From NCBI GenBank assembly GCA_043800705.1, contig JAZDMS010000040.1:5550-69549 (forward strand): a DNA stretch of 64,000 nucleotides, read 5' to 3'. Positions 39,227-44,842 of this stretch are shown here, in pieces. The notes beneath the pieces were generated by a model that saw nothing but the letters and a program-made list of their open reading frames with translations, searched no databases and was not told the origin of the DNA. The position numbers and the translations under genes were made by a program. The stretch's first letter is position 1. Each line of letters starts with the position of its first letter. The DNA is from Candidatus Altiarchaeota archaeon (lineage in GTDB: Archaea > Altiarchaeota > Altiarchaeia > IMC4 > SCGC-AAA252-I15).

Positions 39227-39844
39227 TTATGCCTTCAATATCCCCAAAAGATGCTGTTTAACGGCATCTATGTCCCTTTTTAGATGTCCCTTAGCCTTCA
39301 GGGACTCCAGATCTTCGATGACTGATTCGAGTTTTTCCCGAAGATCATGCTGGGTGACTCTTCTCTTGAAGTACTCGTAGTCAAACCTCCCGAGGTGAGT
39401 CTGGGAAAGAATCACTGACATGCTGCCTATTTCATCCGATTCGGAACCTTTGATCGCGAGTTTGGACGCCGCTAAATCCTCAGCTGAGATGAAATTCACA
39501 GCGACGCCTTCAAACTCCTCAGTTTGTCTGCGTCTCCATGCCTCATCGTCGAATTCGAACCCGTCCACCTTTACCCAGAAACCCGCCTCCCCTGCATCAG
39601 ACCTGAAAACAGTGTAGGAGTTACCCAGGAATTCCCTGAAGGATTTGCCCTCGACCTGCGAGAAACCCGCATCTTCAAGGGATTAAAAAAGGGAATCCTT
39701 TACCGTAGATCTGTCCAATGCGACCTCCAAGTCGAACGTCGCCATTGGCGTCCCATATTTTACGCTTGCCAAGCCGCCGATGACGAGATATCTAACGCAC
39801 TCTTCCTCTAAGAGCCGACCTAAGCTCCGAAGCAAACTCCCCAT
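39227..39844 (-). pseudogene. Nucleotidyltransferase-fold protein interrupted by an in-frame TAA
   Basis: My translation from the ATG at 39844 gives MGSLLRSLGRLLEEECVRYLVIGGLASVKYGTPMATFDLEVALDRSTVKDSLF*SLEDAGF...VDGFEFDDEAW.., continuing in frame into the 113-aa track ORF. The stop at 39683-39685 abuts a T6/A6 run. Confidence 0.55.
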
Positions 39845-39982
39845 CCTGGCCATCTTCCCTCAGCCTGTCGAACTCGGCGAGCCTCCTGCGCCAATCACAT
39901 CTTCCTGCCATCTCAAGGCATCGAAGAAGCCGCATCCGCCGACGATCCATAAGATAATACCTGCCTAAACCGAAATAAAAAG

Positions 39983-41254
39983 TCAAACCCCATTTTTCGG
40001 TTTTTTCACGGTCTTTTCGGCCTTTTTCCCGGATCCTCCGTTTTCGAGGTTGTATCTGACCACCTTCTCCTTGAAATCCATTATCGCCGCGTGGTAGTTG
40101 AGGCCCGCGTCGAACGGGTTGCCGTGGTGGCTGAAGTACTCGTGGACGGAGCCGTCGCCCATCCCCTTCGTGCACATGTAGTAATAGTGGTCGCTTATCT
40201 GGAACATCTTCCACACCTTCATCATCTCCGGGTTCTTGGAGGCCCTCACGTCGTTTTCCATCTCCTTCAGCCTGGAGAAGTTCAAATGCTGCATGTGGTT
40301 GCCGAGCCATGCGCTGGCGTCCCGCTCCATGTCAGCCCAGCTGACTGTCTCATACCAGGGGACCGTGATCTCCCCCCTCGGATAATACCTGTCCGCGACC
40401 TCGCTCGGCGTGTTGAACTCCAGGTTCTGCTTCTCCAGTATCTTATGCGGCATCGCATCCAGGAAGTGGAATATGCCAGTGTCCTCCCACTGGTGTTCGC
40501 CGAAGGTCTCATAGTCCATGAAGATGTTGATCGTGTCCTCGGCCGACCAGCTCAGCCAGTCCGCATACTTCTCCGCGGAAAGCGGCCAACCCGGCCACCA
40601 CTTCGCGCTGAAACGGTATCCGACGTCGTCGGAGAGCTTGTAATTCCTCAAAAGGACCTTCAGCTTCCCCCCCTTCCTCGTATAGACGAAATTAGGGCTT
40701 CTCCACCCGTCCAAGACCCTCTCGATCCCCTCGGTGAGTATGGCCTTGAACCCCATCTCCTCAGCCTCCTTCGCGATCGTGTCGTGGTACAGGAGCTCCG
40801 TGTTCCTGAACACCTTCGGCTTCTGGCCGAGGTAGTCCTTCACCATCTGCTGGTGCTCCAATACCTGCTCCCTGAACTCCTCCCTCTGCTCGAAGAGGCT
40901 CGCCAAGGAATGGTACCTGGTCTCGTTGATGAACTCGCAGCAGCCGGACTTCCCCAACTGCCTGAAAAGGTCCAAAAGGTCCGGCTCCCACCTCTCCATC
41001 TGCTCTAAAATGGAACCGGAAAGCGAATACGAGACCTTGAACTTCCTGTTCTGGCCTTTGAGGCGGTCGATGTTGGCCATGATGTTCTTCGTCGCAGGCC
41101 AATAACACTTCTTCGCCACCTTATGCAAAGTCCACTCATTGAGGCCGTTGTCGAAATAATAGTCCTCTAGGCCGTTCTTCGGGACCCCATTCGGCCAGAA
41201 CCACTTCAGACGAAACGGCTGGTGGACTTGAAAATATAAGCAGACGGATGTCAT
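39983..41254 (-). CDS. Glycoside hydrolase family 57 protein (alpha-amylase/glucanotransferase type)
   Basis: N-terminal MTSVCLYFQVHQPFRLKWF.., ..FMDYETFGEHQWE.. (catalytic region pattern), ..W.GN..Q. Confidence 0.8.
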   Translation of the reverse strand: MTSVCLYFQVHQPFRLKWFWPNGVPKNGLEDYYFDNGLNEWTLHKVAKKCYWPATKNIMANIDRLKGQNRKFKVSYSLSGSILEQMERWEPDLLDLFRQLGKSGCCEFINETRYHSLASLFEQREEFREQVLEHQQMVKDYLGQKPKVFRNTELLYHDTIAKEAEEMGFKAILTEGIERVLDGWRSPNFVYTRKGGKLKVLLRNYKLSDDVGYRFSAKWWPGWPLSAEKYADWLSWSAEDTINIFMDYETFGEHQWEDTGIFHFLDAMPHKILEKQNLEFNTPSEVADRYYPRGEITVPWYETVSWADMERDASAWLGNHMQHLNFSRLKEMENDVRASKNPEMMKVWKMFQISDHYYYMCTKGMGDGSVHEYFSHHGNPFDAGLNYHAAIMDFKEKVVRYNLENGGSGKKAEKTVKKPKNGV

Positions 41255-41394
41255 ATCACTCCCCCCGCTTTATTCGGCCCCTCTTTCTTTTTCGCCAGCG
41301 TTTTTCTTTCTGGGAGAGAAAGAAAAAGGCTGGGCTTGAACCACTTCAACCTGAACGGCTGATGGACTTGAAAGTATAGGCAGACTGAAGTCAT
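41251..41394 (-). CDS. 47-codon upstream ORF whose first 19 codons duplicate the GH57 N-terminus; its stop overlaps the GH57 start
   Basis: MTSVCLYFQVHQPFRLKWFKPSLFLSLPERKTLAKKKEGPNKAGGVI*. The TGA overlaps the ATG at 41254 (ATGA). It contains a perfect 10-bp hairpin at 41301-41327. Confidence 0.4.
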   Translation of the reverse strand: MTSVCLYFQVHQPFRLKWFKPSLFLSLPERKTLAKKKEGPNKAGGVI

Positions 41395-41559
41395 AACACA
41401 ACCCCCTCACGGCCTAGATGACAGATGCTGAACGAATATATCACCAATACACCCCCTAAAAATTCCCCCTAAAAACGACTGTAGAATCATTAGGCGGACG
41501 GATATAAAAGGAGAAGATTGCTTTTCGGCAGTTTTACGCCTATTGGGCCTTGTAGGCTT

Positions 41560-42885
41560 TTAAAATACGTATCCGAGCGATTTGAGCGCATCCAGTTCGT
41601 TGGGGTTCGCGGCCGTTTCGTGTTGCGTCATGTTCGAGTGGCGCGTTAGGGCGTCCGCCAGAGCCTTTTCCACTGCGGGATATTTGCCTATGAGGTCGTT
41701 TTTTTCTTCGGGGCCGTCTTTGAGGTCGTAGAGGTGGTTTTTGTCGGATTTGGTGTGGACGTATAGGTATCTGCCGTCAGTTATGCCCGCTACGGCATCG
41801 TTTGTGGTGCCGTATCCTTCGATGATCTCATATCTCCGGCGGTCATGGAAGATGTCGCCTCCTTGATAGCCTTCAGGGACGGTTATGTTCAGCATCGTAA
41901 GGACGGTGGGTGCCAGGTCGATCAGCCCGACGGGCTCCTGCACCCTGCGCCCCCGGCCGTTGAGGGGGTCGTAGATTATTAGGGGTATGCGGAAGACGCT
42001 TTGGGTTATCCTCGAATGGCCTATGTGGTTGTGTTCTCCGAGGGATTCGCCGTGGTCTGCGGTGACGACAATAATTGTCCTGTCCATGATCCCTTCGTCC
42101 TCCAGGGTCTTGACTATGGCGCCGACCTGTTCGTCGCCGAATCGCACGCCCATATCATATGCGTCATCCACCTCTTCGAGGTCTTCCTTGGCGTATTCCC
42201 GGTCCGGCCATTCGCTTAAGCTCATGTTGAGGCTGCCGTTGATCCCCCTATCGAACATGGATTTGTATTTGGGGTCCTGGGCGTACGGCGCATGCGTCGC
42301 GAGATAGTGGGCGTATATGAAGAATTTGCGGCCTTTTTTCCTTTCGATCATGCTTTTTGCGTGCTCTGTCAGGTTCCGGTCGTTGTTCAACTTCGTCGAG
42401 AGGATCATACGCACGTACTCCTGGAATCCCTGGCCGTAGTTGAGCGGCGCGCTTATGAATCCGTTCGAGAAGAAGCCGCCGGTCGCGTAGCCCTCGTAGC
42501 TTAGGCTTTCCGCGAACGTTGTCTCCTGGTCAGGCAGCCTGTTGTCGGCGATGTCGGGGGATCCGTTTAACGAGTAGGCATATGTCCTGTGAACGGAGGG
42601 ATATTTGGAGGTGAAGATGGTGGCGACAGACGGCTTCGTCCATACCCCCTGGGTGAAAGCCCTGTCGTAGACGATCCCTTTTTCGCAGAGCCTGTCTATG
42701 TTAGGGCTCGTGTTCCTGTAATACCCGTAGCATCCGAGGTGGTCGGGCCTGAGGGCGTCGATGACTATTACCACCACATTCATCCCAGCATTCCTCCCCG
42801 GGGCGGGCTCTTCCGCCCGCTGGCCTAGGGCATATGCGGCGATCAGAATCGCAGCCGCAATAAAGGCGAATATCCCCCTGCGCAT
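41560..42885 (-). CDS. Sulfatase-like hydrolase/transferase (alkaline-phosphatase superfamily), secreted
   Basis: N-terminal TM/signal, VVIVIDALRPDHLGCYGY, ..VTADHGE..GEH. The position of the Cys/Ser-x-P-x-R formylglycine motif reads WTKPSVATIFTSKYP, with Thr at the nucleophile position. Confidence 0.7.
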   Translation of the reverse strand: MRRGIFAFIAAAILIAAYALGQRAEEPAPGRNAGMNVVVIVIDALRPDHLGCYGYYRNTSPNIDRLCEKGIVYDRAFTQGVWTKPSVATIFTSKYPSVHRTYAYSLNGSPDIADNRLPDQETTFAESLSYEGYATGGFFSNGFISAPLNYGQGFQEYVRMILSTKLNNDRNLTEHAKSMIERKKGRKFFIYAHYLATHAPYAQDPKYKSMFDRGINGSLNMSLSEWPDREYAKEDLEEVDDAYDMGVRFGDEQVGAIVKTLEDEGIMDRTIIVVTADHGESLGEHNHIGHSRITQSVFRIPLIIYDPLNGRGRRVQEPVGLIDLAPTVLTMLNITVPEGYQGGDIFHDRRRYEIIEGYGTTNDAVAGITDGRYLYVHTKSDKNHLYDLKDGPEEKNDLIGKYPAVEKALADALTRHSNMTQHETAANPNELDALKSLGYVF

Positions 42886-43003
42886 GCTACCTTATGCTTT
42901 TGTCCTATTATATCTTGTATTTTATCCCGGATTCCAAATAATTGTCATGGTTGCCTCGGACCGATTGGGCGCTTTGAGCTATACTTGTGTGAAGCCGTCT
43001 GAG

Positions 43004-44842
43004 ATGGGTTTGGAGGCCGCCAAGCAGTATGAGTGGCTTTTGCCCAACAGGCTCGGTGGGTATTCGAGCTCGAGCGTATTGGGCCTTAATACGCGGAAGT
43101 ATCACGGTCTTTTGGTGGCTTCGAGGGGGAATCTTGAGGCCAGGCGGGTGGTTTTGGAGAGTTTGACGGAGGAGCTGGTCGCAGGCAACGATGTGTACCC
43201 GCTCGGCGTCACGGAGTATTCGGACACCGTCGATTCCAGGGGCGTCCAGCGGCTGAAGAGGTTCACGAGGGGCGTGGAACATGTGAAGTTCGAGTACGAC
43301 GTCAACGGGACCACTTTGGTGAAGATAATCTACTCGGTGCCGGGGATGAATGCGCTCATAGTCTCGTACGGGGTCAGGAACAACTTCGGCCAGACCGTCA
43401 CGTTGAATGTCCGCCCGCTCGTCAATTCGAGGGCCATCCACGAGTTGAATCCTCCGGGGAGGGATTTCAAGAGCGTCATCTACGATGGGAAGATCCTGGG
43501 CTCCGGCTGCAACGGCGACAATCTGATGTTCGTCAGCGACGACATGGCTCCGCGCTCCGAGGGCGTATGGTACAAGAACGTCAGGTATTCAATGGAGGTG
43601 GAAAGGGGGGAGGCATCGGACGAGGACGTCTACTGTCCCGGCATACTTGAACTCAGGGTCGCTTCCTTCAGCACGCGGGAGGCGGAGCTGTTCGTCCTGT
43701 TGGCGGACGGGGAAGTCGATCCTGTCAAGACGTTCGCGGGGATACATGAGCCGCAGTTTCAGAAGTTCCAGCCGGACCCGGTGCATATCCTTGAGTCGGC
43801 AGCGGAGTCGTTCATAATCGACATCGCAGACATGAAGAGCGTTATCGCGGGTTATCATTGGTTCGCGGACTGGGGCAGGGACACGATGATATCCCTCCCA
43901 GGACTCACCTTGGTGAACAGGAACTTCCGGGATGCGGAGGAGATATTCGCAAGGTGGATAGACAATATCGACGGGGGACGGATTCCGACGAAGTTTACCG
44001 TCAACGGCCCGGAATACTACGACTTCGACGGCACCCTTTGGATGCTGGACCGTTTGGGCGATTATTGCAGGCGCGTCGGCCCCGACCGGGCGGCGAGGTT
44101 CCTCGCGCCGAGGTGGCATCTTCTGAAGAGCATAGTCCCGTACTACCTGGGCCTTCTGGAGAACGGCCTCATAAAACACAAGGCTGGGACGTGGATGGAC
44201 ACCCTGGAGCGGAGCAATGCTGTGGAGGTCCAGGCCCTGTGGTATAATGCGATCTTCGTCCTGGAGGACGTCTCCAGGATGGTCGGCGACCCGTTGGACG
44301 GGGAGAAGCTGAAGGCGGACTTCGAAGCCTCATTCATGGACAAATACTGGAACGGGAATTACCTGAGGGACTGCCTCGAAGACGATTCGATCAGGCCCAA
44401 TCAGGTCATCGCAATCTCACTTGGCCACAGTCCCGTCCCTGACAGGGACGCCAAGGAGGTGCTGAAGATAGCGAGGGAGGAGCTTCTGAGTCCGTGCGGC
44501 CTCAGGACCCTTGACAAAAACGACCCGAAATACTGTCCGAAATACGCGGGCGGGGTCTCGGAGCGGGCTAAGGCGTACCATAACGGGACCGTGTGGCCGT
44601 GGCTCATCGGGCCGTATGCGAAGGCCTGCACGAATCTATACGGTGAAAAGGGGAGGAAACTCGCGTTCGAAGCAGTGAAGCCGGTCCTTTCTAGGCTGAC
44701 CGACGGGTGCATTTGCACGTTGGCGGAAATATACGATGCCGAGCCGCCTCATGCTGCGAGGGGTGCCGCGAGCCAGGCGTGGAGCGTCGCTGAGGTGTTG
44801 AGGGCGTGTTTGGAGGATGCGAAGGTCGACAGGGTGGAGTAG
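43004..44842 (+). CDS. Glycogen debranching enzyme (amylo-alpha-1,6-glucosidase, archaeal GDE type)
   Basis: Start chosen at MGLEAAKQYEWLLPNRLGGYSSSSVLGLNTRKYHGLLVA. Also has ..AGYHWFADWGRDTMISLPGL.., ..EVQALWYNA.., ..AYHNGTVWPWLIGPY... Confidence 0.8.
   Translation: MGLEAAKQYEWLLPNRLGGYSSSSVLGLNTRKYHGLLVASRGNLEARRVVLESLTEELVAGNDVYPLGVTEYSDTVDSRGVQRLKRFTRGVEHVKFEYDVNGTTLVKIIYSVPGMNALIVSYGVRNNFGQTVTLNVRPLVNSRAIHELNPPGRDFKSVIYDGKILGSGCNGDNLMFVSDDMAPRSEGVWYKNVRYSMEVERGEASDEDVYCPGILELRVASFSTREAELFVLLADGEVDPVKTFAGIHEPQFQKFQPDPVHILESAAESFIIDIADMKSVIAGYHWFADWGRDTMISLPGLTLVNRNFRDAEEIFARWIDNIDGGRIPTKFTVNGPEYYDFDGTLWMLDRLGDYCRRVGPDRAARFLAPRWHLLKSIVPYYLGLLENGLIKHKAGTWMDTLERSNAVEVQALWYNAIFVLEDVSRMVGDPLDGEKLKADFEASFMDKYWNGNYLRDCLEDDSIRPNQVIAISLGHSPVPDRDAKEVLKIAREELLSPCGLRTLDKNDPKYCPKYAGGVSERAKAYHNGTVWPWLIGPYAKACTNLYGEKGRKLAFEAVKPVLSRLTDGCICTLAEIYDAEPPHAARGAASQAWSVAEVLRACLEDAKVDRVE

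Follow-up and report, generated by a model that had tools for sequence, protein, structure and literature searches.

The window analysed here, a stretch of 64,000 nucleotides from a Candidatus Altiarchaeota contig, carries on its minus strand a gene for a glycoside hydrolase of the GH57 family, with a predicted short leader ORF (uORF) immediately upstream. Orthologues of the GH57 protein in Altiarchaeota MAGs share 74–86% identity, and an exact-protein look-up with the window protein returned no identical entry on record. The features of the locus, from upstream to downstream on the minus strand, are:

41501 to 41510, minus strand: TATA-like box, cTTTTATATc, read from the sequence.
41451 to 41470, minus strand: G-rich leader motif, AGGGGGAATTTTTAGGGGGT, the native 5' UTR/SD of the GH57 gene family, with the same motif in relatives.
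41391 to 41444, minus strand: first small ORF, 17 codons from the GTG at 41444, VIYSFSICHLGREGVVL, read from the sequence.
41333 to 41406, minus strand: upstream copy (copy A) of a 74-nt unit, with an SD-like GGGGG, the ATG at 41394, and codons 1–19 identical in protein to GH57, from sequence comparison.
41251 to 41394, minus strand: predicted leader ORF of 47 codons, MTSVCLYFQVHQPFRLKWFKPSLFLSLPERKTLAKKKEGPNKAGGVI, from the ATG at 41394 to the TGA at 41253–41251, inside the ATGA of the GH57 start.
41295 to 41333, minus strand: leader hairpin, from repeat search, folding and cross-lineage comparison.
41282 to 41293, minus strand: purine block R2, GAAAAAGAAAGA, the mirror image of the purine arm R1 of the hairpin, identical in the window and in the lineages L001 and L083.
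41193 to 41266, minus strand: downstream copy (copy B) of the 74-nt unit, with an SD G-run at 41266–41261, the ATG at 41254, and GH57 codons 1–22, from sequence comparison.
39983 to 41254, minus strand: GH57 family glycoside hydrolase gene, the main ORF, 423 amino acids (Pfam PF03065, E 1e-80).

The 74-nt unit, consisting of an SD-like G-run and the first 22 codons of GH57, is present twice, 140 nt apart. The two copies are 81% identical and each includes ∼12 nt 5' of the ATG with the G-run, and SD-like motifs are found ahead of both the upstream and the GH57 start. The original prediction had placed the start of a 47-codon uORF at 41394 and that of GH57 at 41254, and had counted nine nucleotide differences in eight of the first 19 codons; all of this was recovered exactly as listed. 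Every one of these differences is synonymous (9/9, with 0 replacements), and the formal test of silent against replacement changes that had been called for gives a probability of about 3e-6 or less for this outcome under random substitution. The claim of silent-only divergence holds for codons 1–19. It does not extend to codons 20–22, previously overlooked, which read KPS in copy A and WPN in copy B, and the replacements are confined to this 3' end, which overlaps an RNA helix. Both copies carry the uncommon combination of V4 and F14. At the level of the predicted peptides, MTSVCLYFQVHQPFR is common to the uORF and GH57 products, and LKWFKPSLFLSLPER is found only in that of the uORF.

Duplication of gene heads is not a general habit of this genome, since only one of the 84 window ORFs shows it. 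Searching with the 47-aa uORF peptide recovered no called uORF, the sole match being P0001, a GH57 fragment at a contig end; gene callers skip such ORFs or mis-start the gene. One entry considered as having a truncated N-terminus, P0015, proved to be an ordinary gene whose start had been mis-called.

Copy A lies behind the native TATA box and the G-rich SD leader in the window as well as in L001 and L083. The motif TAGGGGGGAAGAAGGGGTG is found immediately 5' of the sole start codon in L162, and in L001 and L083 it immediately precedes copy A. Boxes of the form (G)TTTATA(T/A)AG stand at a comparable distance 5' of the G-rich leader in L001, L083, L161, L162, L163, L167 and L002. The spacer between the two copies contains no TATA-like box at a suitable distance 5' of the main start, TATA-like boxes being found only upstream of copy A. 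Judging from its sequence, the box at 41501–41510 is likely to be the promoter of a single transcript covering the whole leader and GH57. Between this box and copy A, the TGA of the first small ORF overlaps the ATG of the upstream copy, forming a second ATGA junction; this ORF shows weak similarity (P about 0.04) to an insert in L161, a sister lineage, and its start, GTGATNTATT, is also that of a uORF in L171. The L171 uORF was considered as a decayed head and rejected, as the anchored comparison yields 11/36 matches (P 0.34), though it does share GTGATNTATT.

The head-spacer-head layout is present in three lineages, namely the window, L001 (JAZDIN010000032.1) and L083 (Ga0316628_100026820). 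The latter two show 83–86% amino-acid identity, and the three carriers are separated by a gene-wide dS of 1.0–1.4. Among the lineages compared, intact copies are confined to these three, all of them metagenome assemblies, and the stretches compared are 39–66 nt long. In a tblastn search the L083 match was placed at the upstream copy. A further sequence with 85% identity, P0003, was left out of the DNA-level comparison. The equivalent uORF has 36 codons in L001, where it overlaps the GH57 start in an ATGA, and 62 codons in L083, counted from its GTG. The start codons of the upstream copies are ATG (window), ATG (L001) and GTG (L083), the change in the last leaving a start codon in place.

Within each of the three genomes, copies A and B have diverged extensively at silent sites (pS 0.74–0.91) and show 0 amino-acid differences over 19 (window), 13 and 22 codons, for a nucleotide identity of 81–83% across carriers; under random substitution this has a probability of 2e-5 or less per genome. 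The upstream copies are also constrained when compared with each other: the three A-to-A comparisons between lineages give 5 nucleotide and 0 amino-acid differences, 11 and 2, and 6 and 1 (P between 2e-5 and 7e-3). Residues I4 and Y14 are common to both L083 copies, the amino acids co-varying between copies within a genome. These substitution patterns demonstrate purifying selection at the amino-acid level on the copied head (13–22 codons), and not on the tail of the uORF. The tails differ between lineages, and that of L001 is read in a different frame; therefore the spacer is conserved at the nucleotide level, and the head at the protein level.

The arrangement is also old. The window and L001 have in common a 51-nt deletion in the spacer, relative to L083 and to the outgroup L164, which fits the neighbour-joining (NJ) tree of the gene, and the window and L083 have their head-to-CTTTTT junction at an identical position. 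Both characters match the gene tree, which makes the upstream copies orthologous and argues for vertical inheritance.

Other relatives carry the arrangement in decayed or partial form. Recognisable relics of the head are found in L039 and L161, with 20/36 and 17/36 anchored matches respectively (P 2e-4 and 2e-3). Both have accumulated many replacements, as a neutral relic should; in L039 there are 8 amino-acid changes in 13 codons, which is consistent with neutrality (P 0.22). No such decay is seen in the window (codons 1–19), L001 or L083. Decaying duplicates in relatives had been named in advance as evidence against selection on the upstream copy, and they do exist; however, both L039 and L161 have lost the spacer hairpin as well, and this joint decay is better explained by a function that was lost than by one that never existed. 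In L164 the spacer is found alone, behind a TATA box and without a head copy. L164 and L165, which come from two separate data sources, carry the spacer independently as a leader. The arrangement must be dispensable, because L164 has the spacer without the head and many relatives lack the whole arrangement.

The original prediction had offered, alongside a leader peptide, the import of a diverged allele, and this is the reading to be weighed first. Here the upstream copy would be a non-functional relic: a diverged GH57 allele arrived with its own spacer leader, the resident promoter, leader and first ∼20 codons survived as an upstream remnant, and the silent-only differences would be the divergence between two functional orthologues before the event. 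The layout does resemble a fusion of a type-1 locus (leader-head, as in L162) with a type-2 locus (spacer-head, as in L164), the upstream synteny differs among the three carriers (sulfatase, TatA/C-like genes, GDE), and the L039 and L161 copies demonstrate that heads of this kind decay. The head peptide is moreover very conserved across lineages, such that a match of a foreign head in L001 and L083 could be due to chance. Against this, the shared junction and deletion date the arrangement to before the split of lineages now separated by dS > 1, an age that predicts change at about half of the sites, whereas 0 replacements are found at ∼120 non-synonymous sites in the three genomes. A relic should resemble the decayed L039 and L161 copies, and its A-to-A comparisons are not expected to be constrained; three independent recent imports would require the same junction every time; and the uncommon V4 and F14 are present in both window copies. 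With copies that are old yet undecayed, the imported relic is disfavoured, and I regard it as unlikely.

Concerted evolution, in which an untranslated upstream copy is overwritten repeatedly by gene conversion from the downstream copy, is improbable. It would account for the co-variation within genomes (V4/F14 in the window, I4/Y14 in L083), and silent states are swapped at sites 6, 16 and 33, with window copy A resembling L001 copy B. Gene conversion, however, homogenises silent and replacement sites alike, and cannot yield the observed pS without a single amino-acid difference. The identical runs around the co-varying codons extend over just 6–8 nt and have silent differences on their flanks, and copies under continued conversion are hard to reconcile with a nucleotide identity of only 81–83%.

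It is more improbable still that the copied head makes full-length enzyme, either because ribosomes bypass the spacer and second head, or because the intervening ∼107–187 nt are cut out, whether from the RNA (as a bulge-helix-bulge intron, for instance) or, in some members of the population, from the DNA. Such a route would directly explain the conservation of the amino acids and their co-variation with the downstream head, and the stable hairpin right after the copied head and the SD-like element before the second head are reminiscent of T4 gene 60. The matched codons, adjacent stop and ∼50 nt gap of T4 gene 60-type bypass are nevertheless missing here: the gap is 107–187 nt, far above that of known bypasses, no stop codon directly follows a candidate take-off codon, and candidate take-off and landing codons lack a consistent match (AGC and AAT at codon 22 in the window, CCA and CCT in L001). 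For a bulge-helix-bulge intron there is no conserved pairing, the GGCC segment with which L083 could form one being absent from the window and L001. A frameshift fusion is excluded in the window by a main-frame stop 18 nt upstream of the ATG, and a DNA deletion could not be undone, and would thus be unable to keep the copy under selection. Finally, the chance of an assembly artefact, in which the assembler placed two strain-level versions of the gene start one after the other, is close to nil even though every carrier is a metagenome-derived contig, given the same layout with lineage-specific sequence in three independent assemblies from different projects, copies that at 81% identity share no long exact k-mer for joining, and the independent use of the spacer as a leader in L164 and L165.

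The spacer is itself a conserved, structured leader, with helices backed by compensatory changes, a feature missed by the original prediction. That prediction did identify the perfect 10-bp hairpin at 41301–41327, which is real and unique in the window, and which extends to 17 bp with one mismatch (41295–41311 with 41317–41333). It consists of a pyrimidine arm Y1, CCTTTTTCTTTCT (41329–41317), a CTCCC loop (41316–41312), and the purine arm R1, AGAAAGAAAAACG (41311–41299), and is closed by a helix in which CAGC (41332–41329) pairs with GCTG (41299–41296), starting in the last copied codon. The purine block R2 could replace R1 as the partner of Y1; in fold predictions for the window, the MFE structure pairs Y1 with R2, and the centroid pairs Y1 with R1. 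The Y1, R1 and R2 blocks (38 nt) are exactly the same in the window and L001, despite a dS of 1.4. The closing helix occurs in four complementary versions in four lineages, CAGC/GCTG, CAAC/GTTG, GAAC/GTTC and GAGC/GCTC. Over these four sequences only, 22 pairs show 100% of cells paired, with double-sided changes at 7 of them; no shuffle out of 500 attains the covariation score of the real alignment, and in slid controls the paired fraction falls to 46–60%. Relative to shuffles, the long forms of the spacer are also much more stably folded (z −5.6 and −4.5).

A scan of the leader against Rfam 15 yielded best matches of 14–16 bits, against gathering thresholds of 50–96, and no family was reached. 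A scan of the leader for terminators found none, with a bacterial promoter/terminator model that is uninformative for an archaeon. The invariant U5 tract (41327–41323) is part of the 5' arm of the hairpin, rather than lying 3' of a stem. A mobile or MITE-type repeat was rejected as the origin of the spacer, whose blocks are single-copy in the 64-kb window and, across 172 loci, were found solely 5' of GH57. SD occlusion at the main start was also dropped as a claim: folding leaves the main SD and start region about 35–40% unpaired in all cases, and the window value is unchanged with the uORF held open.

The overlap of the uORF stop with the GH57 start in an ATGA, which had been read as the classic arrangement for termination-reinitiation coupling, is real (41254–41251), and the two ORFs are co-directional and adjacent in all three carriers, with an ATGA in the window and L001 and a TAA that ends 1 nt before the ATG in L083. 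When the window spacer is shuffled, 55% of trials still leave the uORF open as far as the GH57 start, and the ATGA ending is therefore weak evidence. The same null gives P 0.55 for the window, 0.33 and 0.18 for the other carriers, and 0.08 for L171; the product of the three carrier values is about 0.03, for carriers that are not independent. The TGA of ATGAC is intrinsic to a Met-Thr start, and any open +1 frame will thus end there; +1-frame ORFs ending on this TGA are common even in relatives without the duplication. Conservation of the open frame and of the ATGA was for this reason set aside as proof of coupling, the null being too permissive. Termination-reinitiation coupling of the uORF to GH57 is a plausible hypothesis.

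Since the head holds its protein sequence in three distantly related lineages against near-saturated silent change, the upstream copy most likely serves as a translated regulatory leader rather than persisting as a dead relic. The leader reading in the original prediction is supported in part: the layout recurs in two more lineages at dS > 1, with saturated silent sites, 0 amino-acid differences between copies and constrained A-to-A comparisons, while translation of the uORF, its coupling to the GH57 start and the direction in which regulation acts are matters that I infer. I put at slightly better than even (roughly 0.55) the specific proposal that an ancient partial 5' duplication has been kept as a translated leader ORF, which runs through the conserved hairpin and stops on the main start. 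The RBS and first ∼22 codons of GH57 would have been duplicated in the ancestor of this Altiarchaeota clade, with a short structured spacer between the copies, and the upstream copy, behind the native promoter and the G-rich leader, would have been retained as the start of the leader ORF. Ribosomes may load at the upstream start, translate the copied head, meet the pyrimidine/purine hairpin, and end on, or 1 nt before, the GH57 start codon. The leader would act in cis, its translation opening the hairpin domain and supplying the main start with ribosomes, or letting them initiate there, through either termination-reinitiation or an initiation that depends on upstream translation. It may also guard the transcript against premature termination at the U5 tract. 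The output of GH57 would in this way be tied to translation of the leader.

This proposed mechanism does not explain the strongest signal, the conserved peptide, because delivery of ribosomes needs no conserved peptide per se. One speculative extension, to which I give only a slim chance, is that the copied N-terminal peptide is a sensor, making the uORF product an autoregulatory leader peptide that mimics the protein it regulates. The nascent chain would emerge while the ribosome finishes the leader ORF on the main start codon, and could be bound by whatever binds the GH57 N-terminus, for which a chaperone, a targeting factor, and the folded enzyme or its partner subunit are candidates. How much of this factor is available would then tune enzyme translation. 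Such a reading would account for a head that is identical to, and co-varies with, that of the enzyme, and for a leader ORF that is free to vary elsewhere. A less likely variant has recoding join the upstream head to the body of the enzyme.

At this locus a partial duplicate of a gene's own translation start, joined to an RNA hairpin domain that covaries, has long been kept as a coding element. If the identity of the peptide matters, this may be a leader peptide mimicking the N-terminus of the protein under its control; otherwise, the locus would still define a new structured leader, in the 5' region of a gene for glycogen metabolism. Sister lineages with decayed copies provide a natural control for the recruitment of partial 5' duplications into regulation. 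Altiarchaeota are uncultivated, and regulatory leader ORFs are poorly known in archaea, with none known to be described for Altiarchaeota.

Several known systems are comparable in part. SecM and MifM are regulatory nascent peptides. The PKC-eta uORF encodes a pseudosubstrate-like peptide (PMC8501901). In the GH57 leader, too, a uORF peptide is under selection, implying that the product or the nascent chain matters. This leader peptide is not known to have a stalling motif or a trans activity, its conserved part is identical to the first beta-strand/HQP region of the downstream enzyme, and SecM, MifM and the PKC-eta uORF are an analogy only. Bacterial control by leader peptides and uORFs includes the interplay of uORFs and riboswitches in M. 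tuberculosis B12 leaders (PMC11260477), and upstream RBSs have been predicted in Sinorhizobium (PMC13285730). The GH57 leader resembles these in having a predicted short 5'-leader ORF through or beside a conserved RNA structure upstream of a gene, and a U-rich tract. It differs in being archaeal, and in that its peptide is derived from the regulated gene itself and is conserved N-terminally, rather than as a C-terminal stalling motif. Nor does it match a trp-type attenuator: the leader contains neither a canonical terminator/antiterminator pair, its U tract forming the hairpin's 5' arm, nor a run of regulatory codons; it begins with the GH57 N-terminus.

In origin, the upstream copies resemble pseudogenic 5' fragments, which likewise arise by partial duplication of an SD and head, and whose fate is seen in L039 and L161; those of the window, L001 and L083 differ in being undecayed at the protein level despite saturated silent sites. 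A further parallel is with coupled overlapping gene pairs (ATGA/TGATG), which have been tested in Haloferax volcanii and E. coli, and of which the ATGA-overlapping pairs are strictly translationally coupled in H. volcanii (Huber et al., 2019; PMC6728339). The GH57 locus has the same junction in the window and L001, a 1 nt gap in L083, and an SD-like motif within the 3' end of the uORF. Here the upstream ORF is not a gene of its own but a predicted short leader, with its first 13–22 codons a conserved paralogue of the downstream N-terminus and a conserved hairpin domain inside it.

The GH57 gene of the window, on the minus strand, is preceded by a leader ORF (uORF) that repeats the beginning of the gene itself. 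Codons 1–19 of both encode the same peptide, MTSVCLYFQVHQPFRLKWF, and sequence comparison agrees with the original prediction that the two 57-nt stretches differ at nine positions, in eight codons, all of them silent. The repeated unit begins ∼12 nt before each ATG, at a Shine-Dalgarno (SD)-like G-run, and extends through codon 22. Codons 20–22 of the upstream copy (hereafter copy A) read KPS, versus WPN in the GH57 gene (copy B), the replacements being confined to the 3' end of the copy. No upstream copy of its own head was found for any other of the 84 window ORFs of at least 150 aa. The features of the locus are as follows:

41254 (ATG) to 39983, minus: GH57 glycoside hydrolase gene, 423 aa (Pfam PF03065, E 1e-80)
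From ATG 41394, minus: leader uORF of 47 codons, starting 140 nt upstream of the GH57 start; its stop is the TGA in the ATGA of that start
41193–41266 and 41333–41406, minus: 74-nt repeat unit, 81% identity between copies
41295–41333, minus: hairpin between the copies, perfect over 10–11 bp, 17 bp with one mismatch
41282–41293, minus: purine block R2, mirror image of the hairpin 3' arm
41391–41444, minus: 17-codon GTG ORF, its own stop in an ATGA on the copy A start
41451–41470, minus: G-rich leader, upstream of both head copies
41501–41510, minus: TATA-like box, upstream of both head copies
41560–42885, minus: sulfatase-family gene (Pfam PF00884, E 6e-48), separating the debranching enzyme gene from the GH57 leader
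42761–44842, plus: glycogen debranching enzyme gene, beyond the sulfatase gene
39227–39568 and 39683–39853, minus: two small ORFs (113 and 56 aa) in the interval from GH57 to the glycogen synthase gene

As both the 17-codon ORF and the uORF end in ATGA, the window has a relay of ATGA-linked small ORFs before GH57. The native G-rich leader is directly followed by the 17-codon ORF, whose first 10 nt (GTGATATATT) look like the beginning of a 39-codon uORF in the relative L171 (GTGATTTATT); the segment is weakly similar to an insert in the sister lineage L161.

The nearest GH57 relatives are all from Altiarchaeota metagenome bins. There, GH57 usually stands between a GT4/GT5 glycogen synthase, which follows it, and a divergent glycogen debranching enzyme gene, from which a short intergenic region separates it. 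The debranching enzyme and GH57 genes are direct divergent neighbours in most relatives; the sulfatase gene intervenes in the window. The longest sulfatase and debranching enzyme ORFs overlap by ∼125 nt at their 5' ends, and one start is therefore probably mis-set. The 113-aa and 56-aa ORFs have no Pfam or NCBIfam match even at E <= 1; relatives have at the same position an unannotated opposite-strand ORF of 165–184 aa, together with a DUF2582 gene next to the synthase.

The same layout, namely copy A upstream of the real start with a homologous spacer between them, is present in two relatives, L001 and L083.

Head copies in the three carriers, with silent/replacement codon differences between A and B
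Window: copy A start ATG; 19 head codons kept (22 with KPS); A to B 140 nt; uORF ending in ATGA; 9/2 (replacements at codons 20 and 22 only)
L001 (86% aa): copy A start ATG; 13 head codons kept; A to B 107 nt; uORF ending in ATGA; 7/0
L083 (83% aa): copy A start GTG; 22 head codons kept; A to B 187 nt; uORF ending in TAA, 1 nt before the ATG; 10/0 (one of the 10 is the start codon)

In L083 (2501–3545), the tblastn match for GH57 starts at copy A (2501) versus the real start at 2688, and the L171 uORF (39 aa) has been annotated as a gene in its own right; automatic 5'-end annotation of these loci is therefore unreliable.

Silent divergence between A and B is near saturation (pS = 0.74–0.91, Nei-Gojobori; orthologous heads of different lineages, 0.50–0.88), and under random substitution the all-silent outcome has P <= 2e-5 in each genome. 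Gene-wide dS between lineages is 1.0–1.8. A neighbour-joining tree interleaves the three carriers with relatives lacking an intact copy, the clade being ((WIN, L161), L001, L162, (L163, L083)), where WIN is the window, with L164, L171 and L039 outside. Compared with L083 and L164, the window and L001 have an identical 51-nt deletion in the spacer, and the head-to-CTTTTT junction of the window coincides in position with that of L083; the head-less L164 keeps the last few junction nucleotides (CCCTGAGC versus GGCCGAAC, each followed by CTTTTT). On the simplest history, a single old duplication was inherited vertically and lost several times; direct-repeat recombination between A and B would remove the spacer and leave a single head, as in L162 and L163. 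Given the shared deletion and junction and a single old duplication, copies A are orthologous between lineages, and an A-to-A comparison therefore measures the evolution of copy A alone.

Copy A compared between lineages (P under random substitution)
L001 versus L083: 5 nt, 0 aa differences; P 2e-4 to 1e-3
Window versus L083: 11 nt, 2 aa differences; P 2e-5 to 1.5e-4
Window versus L001: 6 nt, 1 aa difference; P 1e-3 to 7e-3

V4 and F14 are found in both copies of the window, and I4 and Y14 in both copies of L083; identical nucleotide runs around codons 4 and 14 are only 6–8 nt. In these three intact carriers (window, L001 and L083), short sequences all from metagenomes, the evolutionary signal is clean and unexpected.

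Two explanations had been offered in the original prediction. That of a translated leader under selection is supported, copy A being constrained and hairpin-adjacent copies intact in three lineages. The other, an imported foreign head with the resident one left upstream as a relic, is disfavoured, as each lineage would need its own recent capture at one and the same junction. Gene conversion between the copies cannot yield saturated silent divergence with zero replacements, because it converts silent and replacement sites alike.

Decayed copies occur in L039 (80% aa) and in L161, sister to the window, where a start codon and head-derived sequence lie directly behind the native leader. Anchored matches to the head are 20/36 (P 2e-4) and 17/36 (P 2e-3) respectively, and both copies carry many replacements, the decay that had been proposed as counting against selection on the upstream copy. 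The L039 copy (MNSVSLCSQTHTC versus MTSICLYFQVHQP) shows 8 amino-acid changes per 16 nucleotide changes, compatible with neutrality (P 0.22). L039 has lost the hairpin and keeps an exact 12-mer of the spacer 3' part, GTTCACGAAAAA; L161 has lost the entire spacer. Decay is thus seen where the hairpin is gone, and 3/3 copies abutting an intact hairpin (window, L001, L083) are pristine, the pattern expected for a functional unit lost in some lineages.

Three blocks of the spacer (38 nt; CCTTTTTCTTTCT, AGAAAGAAAAACG and GAAAAAGAAAGA) are identical between the window and L001, flanking silent sites having diverged freely, and L083 differs at one position. These blocks are read in a different frame in L001 than in the window and L083 (PFSFLGRKKN versus LFLSLPERK); what is conserved is therefore the nucleic acid in the spacer and the protein in the head. 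L083 (2594–2640) and L164 (1925–1968) possess a long form with two additional hairpins (in L083, GGGAACC/GGTTCCC and GCGAACC/GGTTCGC), whose stems differ by compensatory changes, and against shuffles the long forms score much better in folding (z −5.6 and −4.5). The 4-bp closing helix exists in four versions, always complementary (CAGC/GCTG, CAAC/GTTG, GAAC/GTTC, GAGC/GCTC). Over the spacer helices 69/69 cells pair, with double-sided changes at 7/22 pairs; 0/500 shuffles reached the observed covariation score, and slid controls fall to 46–60% pairing. With only four sequences behind it, the covariation support for the predicted structure is good, though short of overwhelming. The final codon of the copied head doubles as the 5' strand of the closing helix, and N22S in the window (AAC to AGC) has its counterpart in a GTT to GCT change on the opposite strand, identifying this replacement as an RNA-level change.

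The spacer matches no Rfam family, and is single-copy across the window and the relatives' sequences searched. In L083 and L164 alike, the hairpin regions flank an identical 13-mer, GATTGCCGCGAAC, which might be the leader's binding core for a protein or ligand. The purine arm R1 (AGAAAGAAAAA) and R2 (AAAAAGAAAGA) form a perfect mirror repeat beside the pyrimidine arm Y1 (window 41282–41329, minus), which could allow a triplex (H-DNA-like or RNA triple helix) or a switch between Y1:R1 and Y1:R2; the predicted window fold has Y1:R2 in the MFE and Y1:R1 in the centroid. Between identical stems, the loop of the hairpin reads CTCCC in the window (41312–41316, minus) and TGGGA in L001 (2949–2953), with 0/5 identity; the L001 loop, roughly the reverse complement of the window's, may be a small loop inversion as at palindromes. 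The TATA box before the head-less spacer leader of L164 (1860–1900), CCTATATAAACC, resembles by eye head codons 5–8 (TGC CTA TAC TTC), and this promoter may derive from a decayed head copy.

Relatives that lack the arrangement have the gene's own start where copy A lies, with the same TATA-like box and G-rich leader in front. Copy A keeps a start codon and SD-like motif, evolves like coding sequence, and runs directly into the conserved hairpin. The uORF frame ends at the main start or 1 nt before it in 3/3 carriers; the statistic for a frame open to the main start is weak. For a translated leader, I propose that ribosomes translating the uORF would unwind the hairpin domain and stop at the main start, where they would reinitiate or permit fresh initiation. 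In another archaeon, Haloferax volcanii, the coupling of ATGA pairs is strict (PMC6728339). Archaeal termination efficiency is set by U-tracts and aCPSF1/FttA (PMC8716108), and, speculatively, the invariant U5 at the spacer start could be a termination signal whose use depends on the following ribosome. Occlusion of the SD is not supported by folding. No signals of bypassing, frameshift fusion or an intron were found at these loci.

The 13–22 N-terminal residues of copy A are held identical to the enzyme's own head. A role in ribosome delivery leaves this unexplained, because such a uORF needs an open frame and not a particular peptide. The least strained proposal would have the nascent N-terminal peptide recognised by a putative factor that also recognises the real GH57 N-terminus. 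The leader hypothesis is directly testable.

In a limited literature search, no uORF turned up that had been described as a conserved paralog of the N-terminus of its own main ORF. Among known systems, the locus falls outside the trp-type attenuators, and has the geometry of termination-reinitiation pairs. Closest to it in working is a translated leader ORF coupled to the main ORF across a structured leader.
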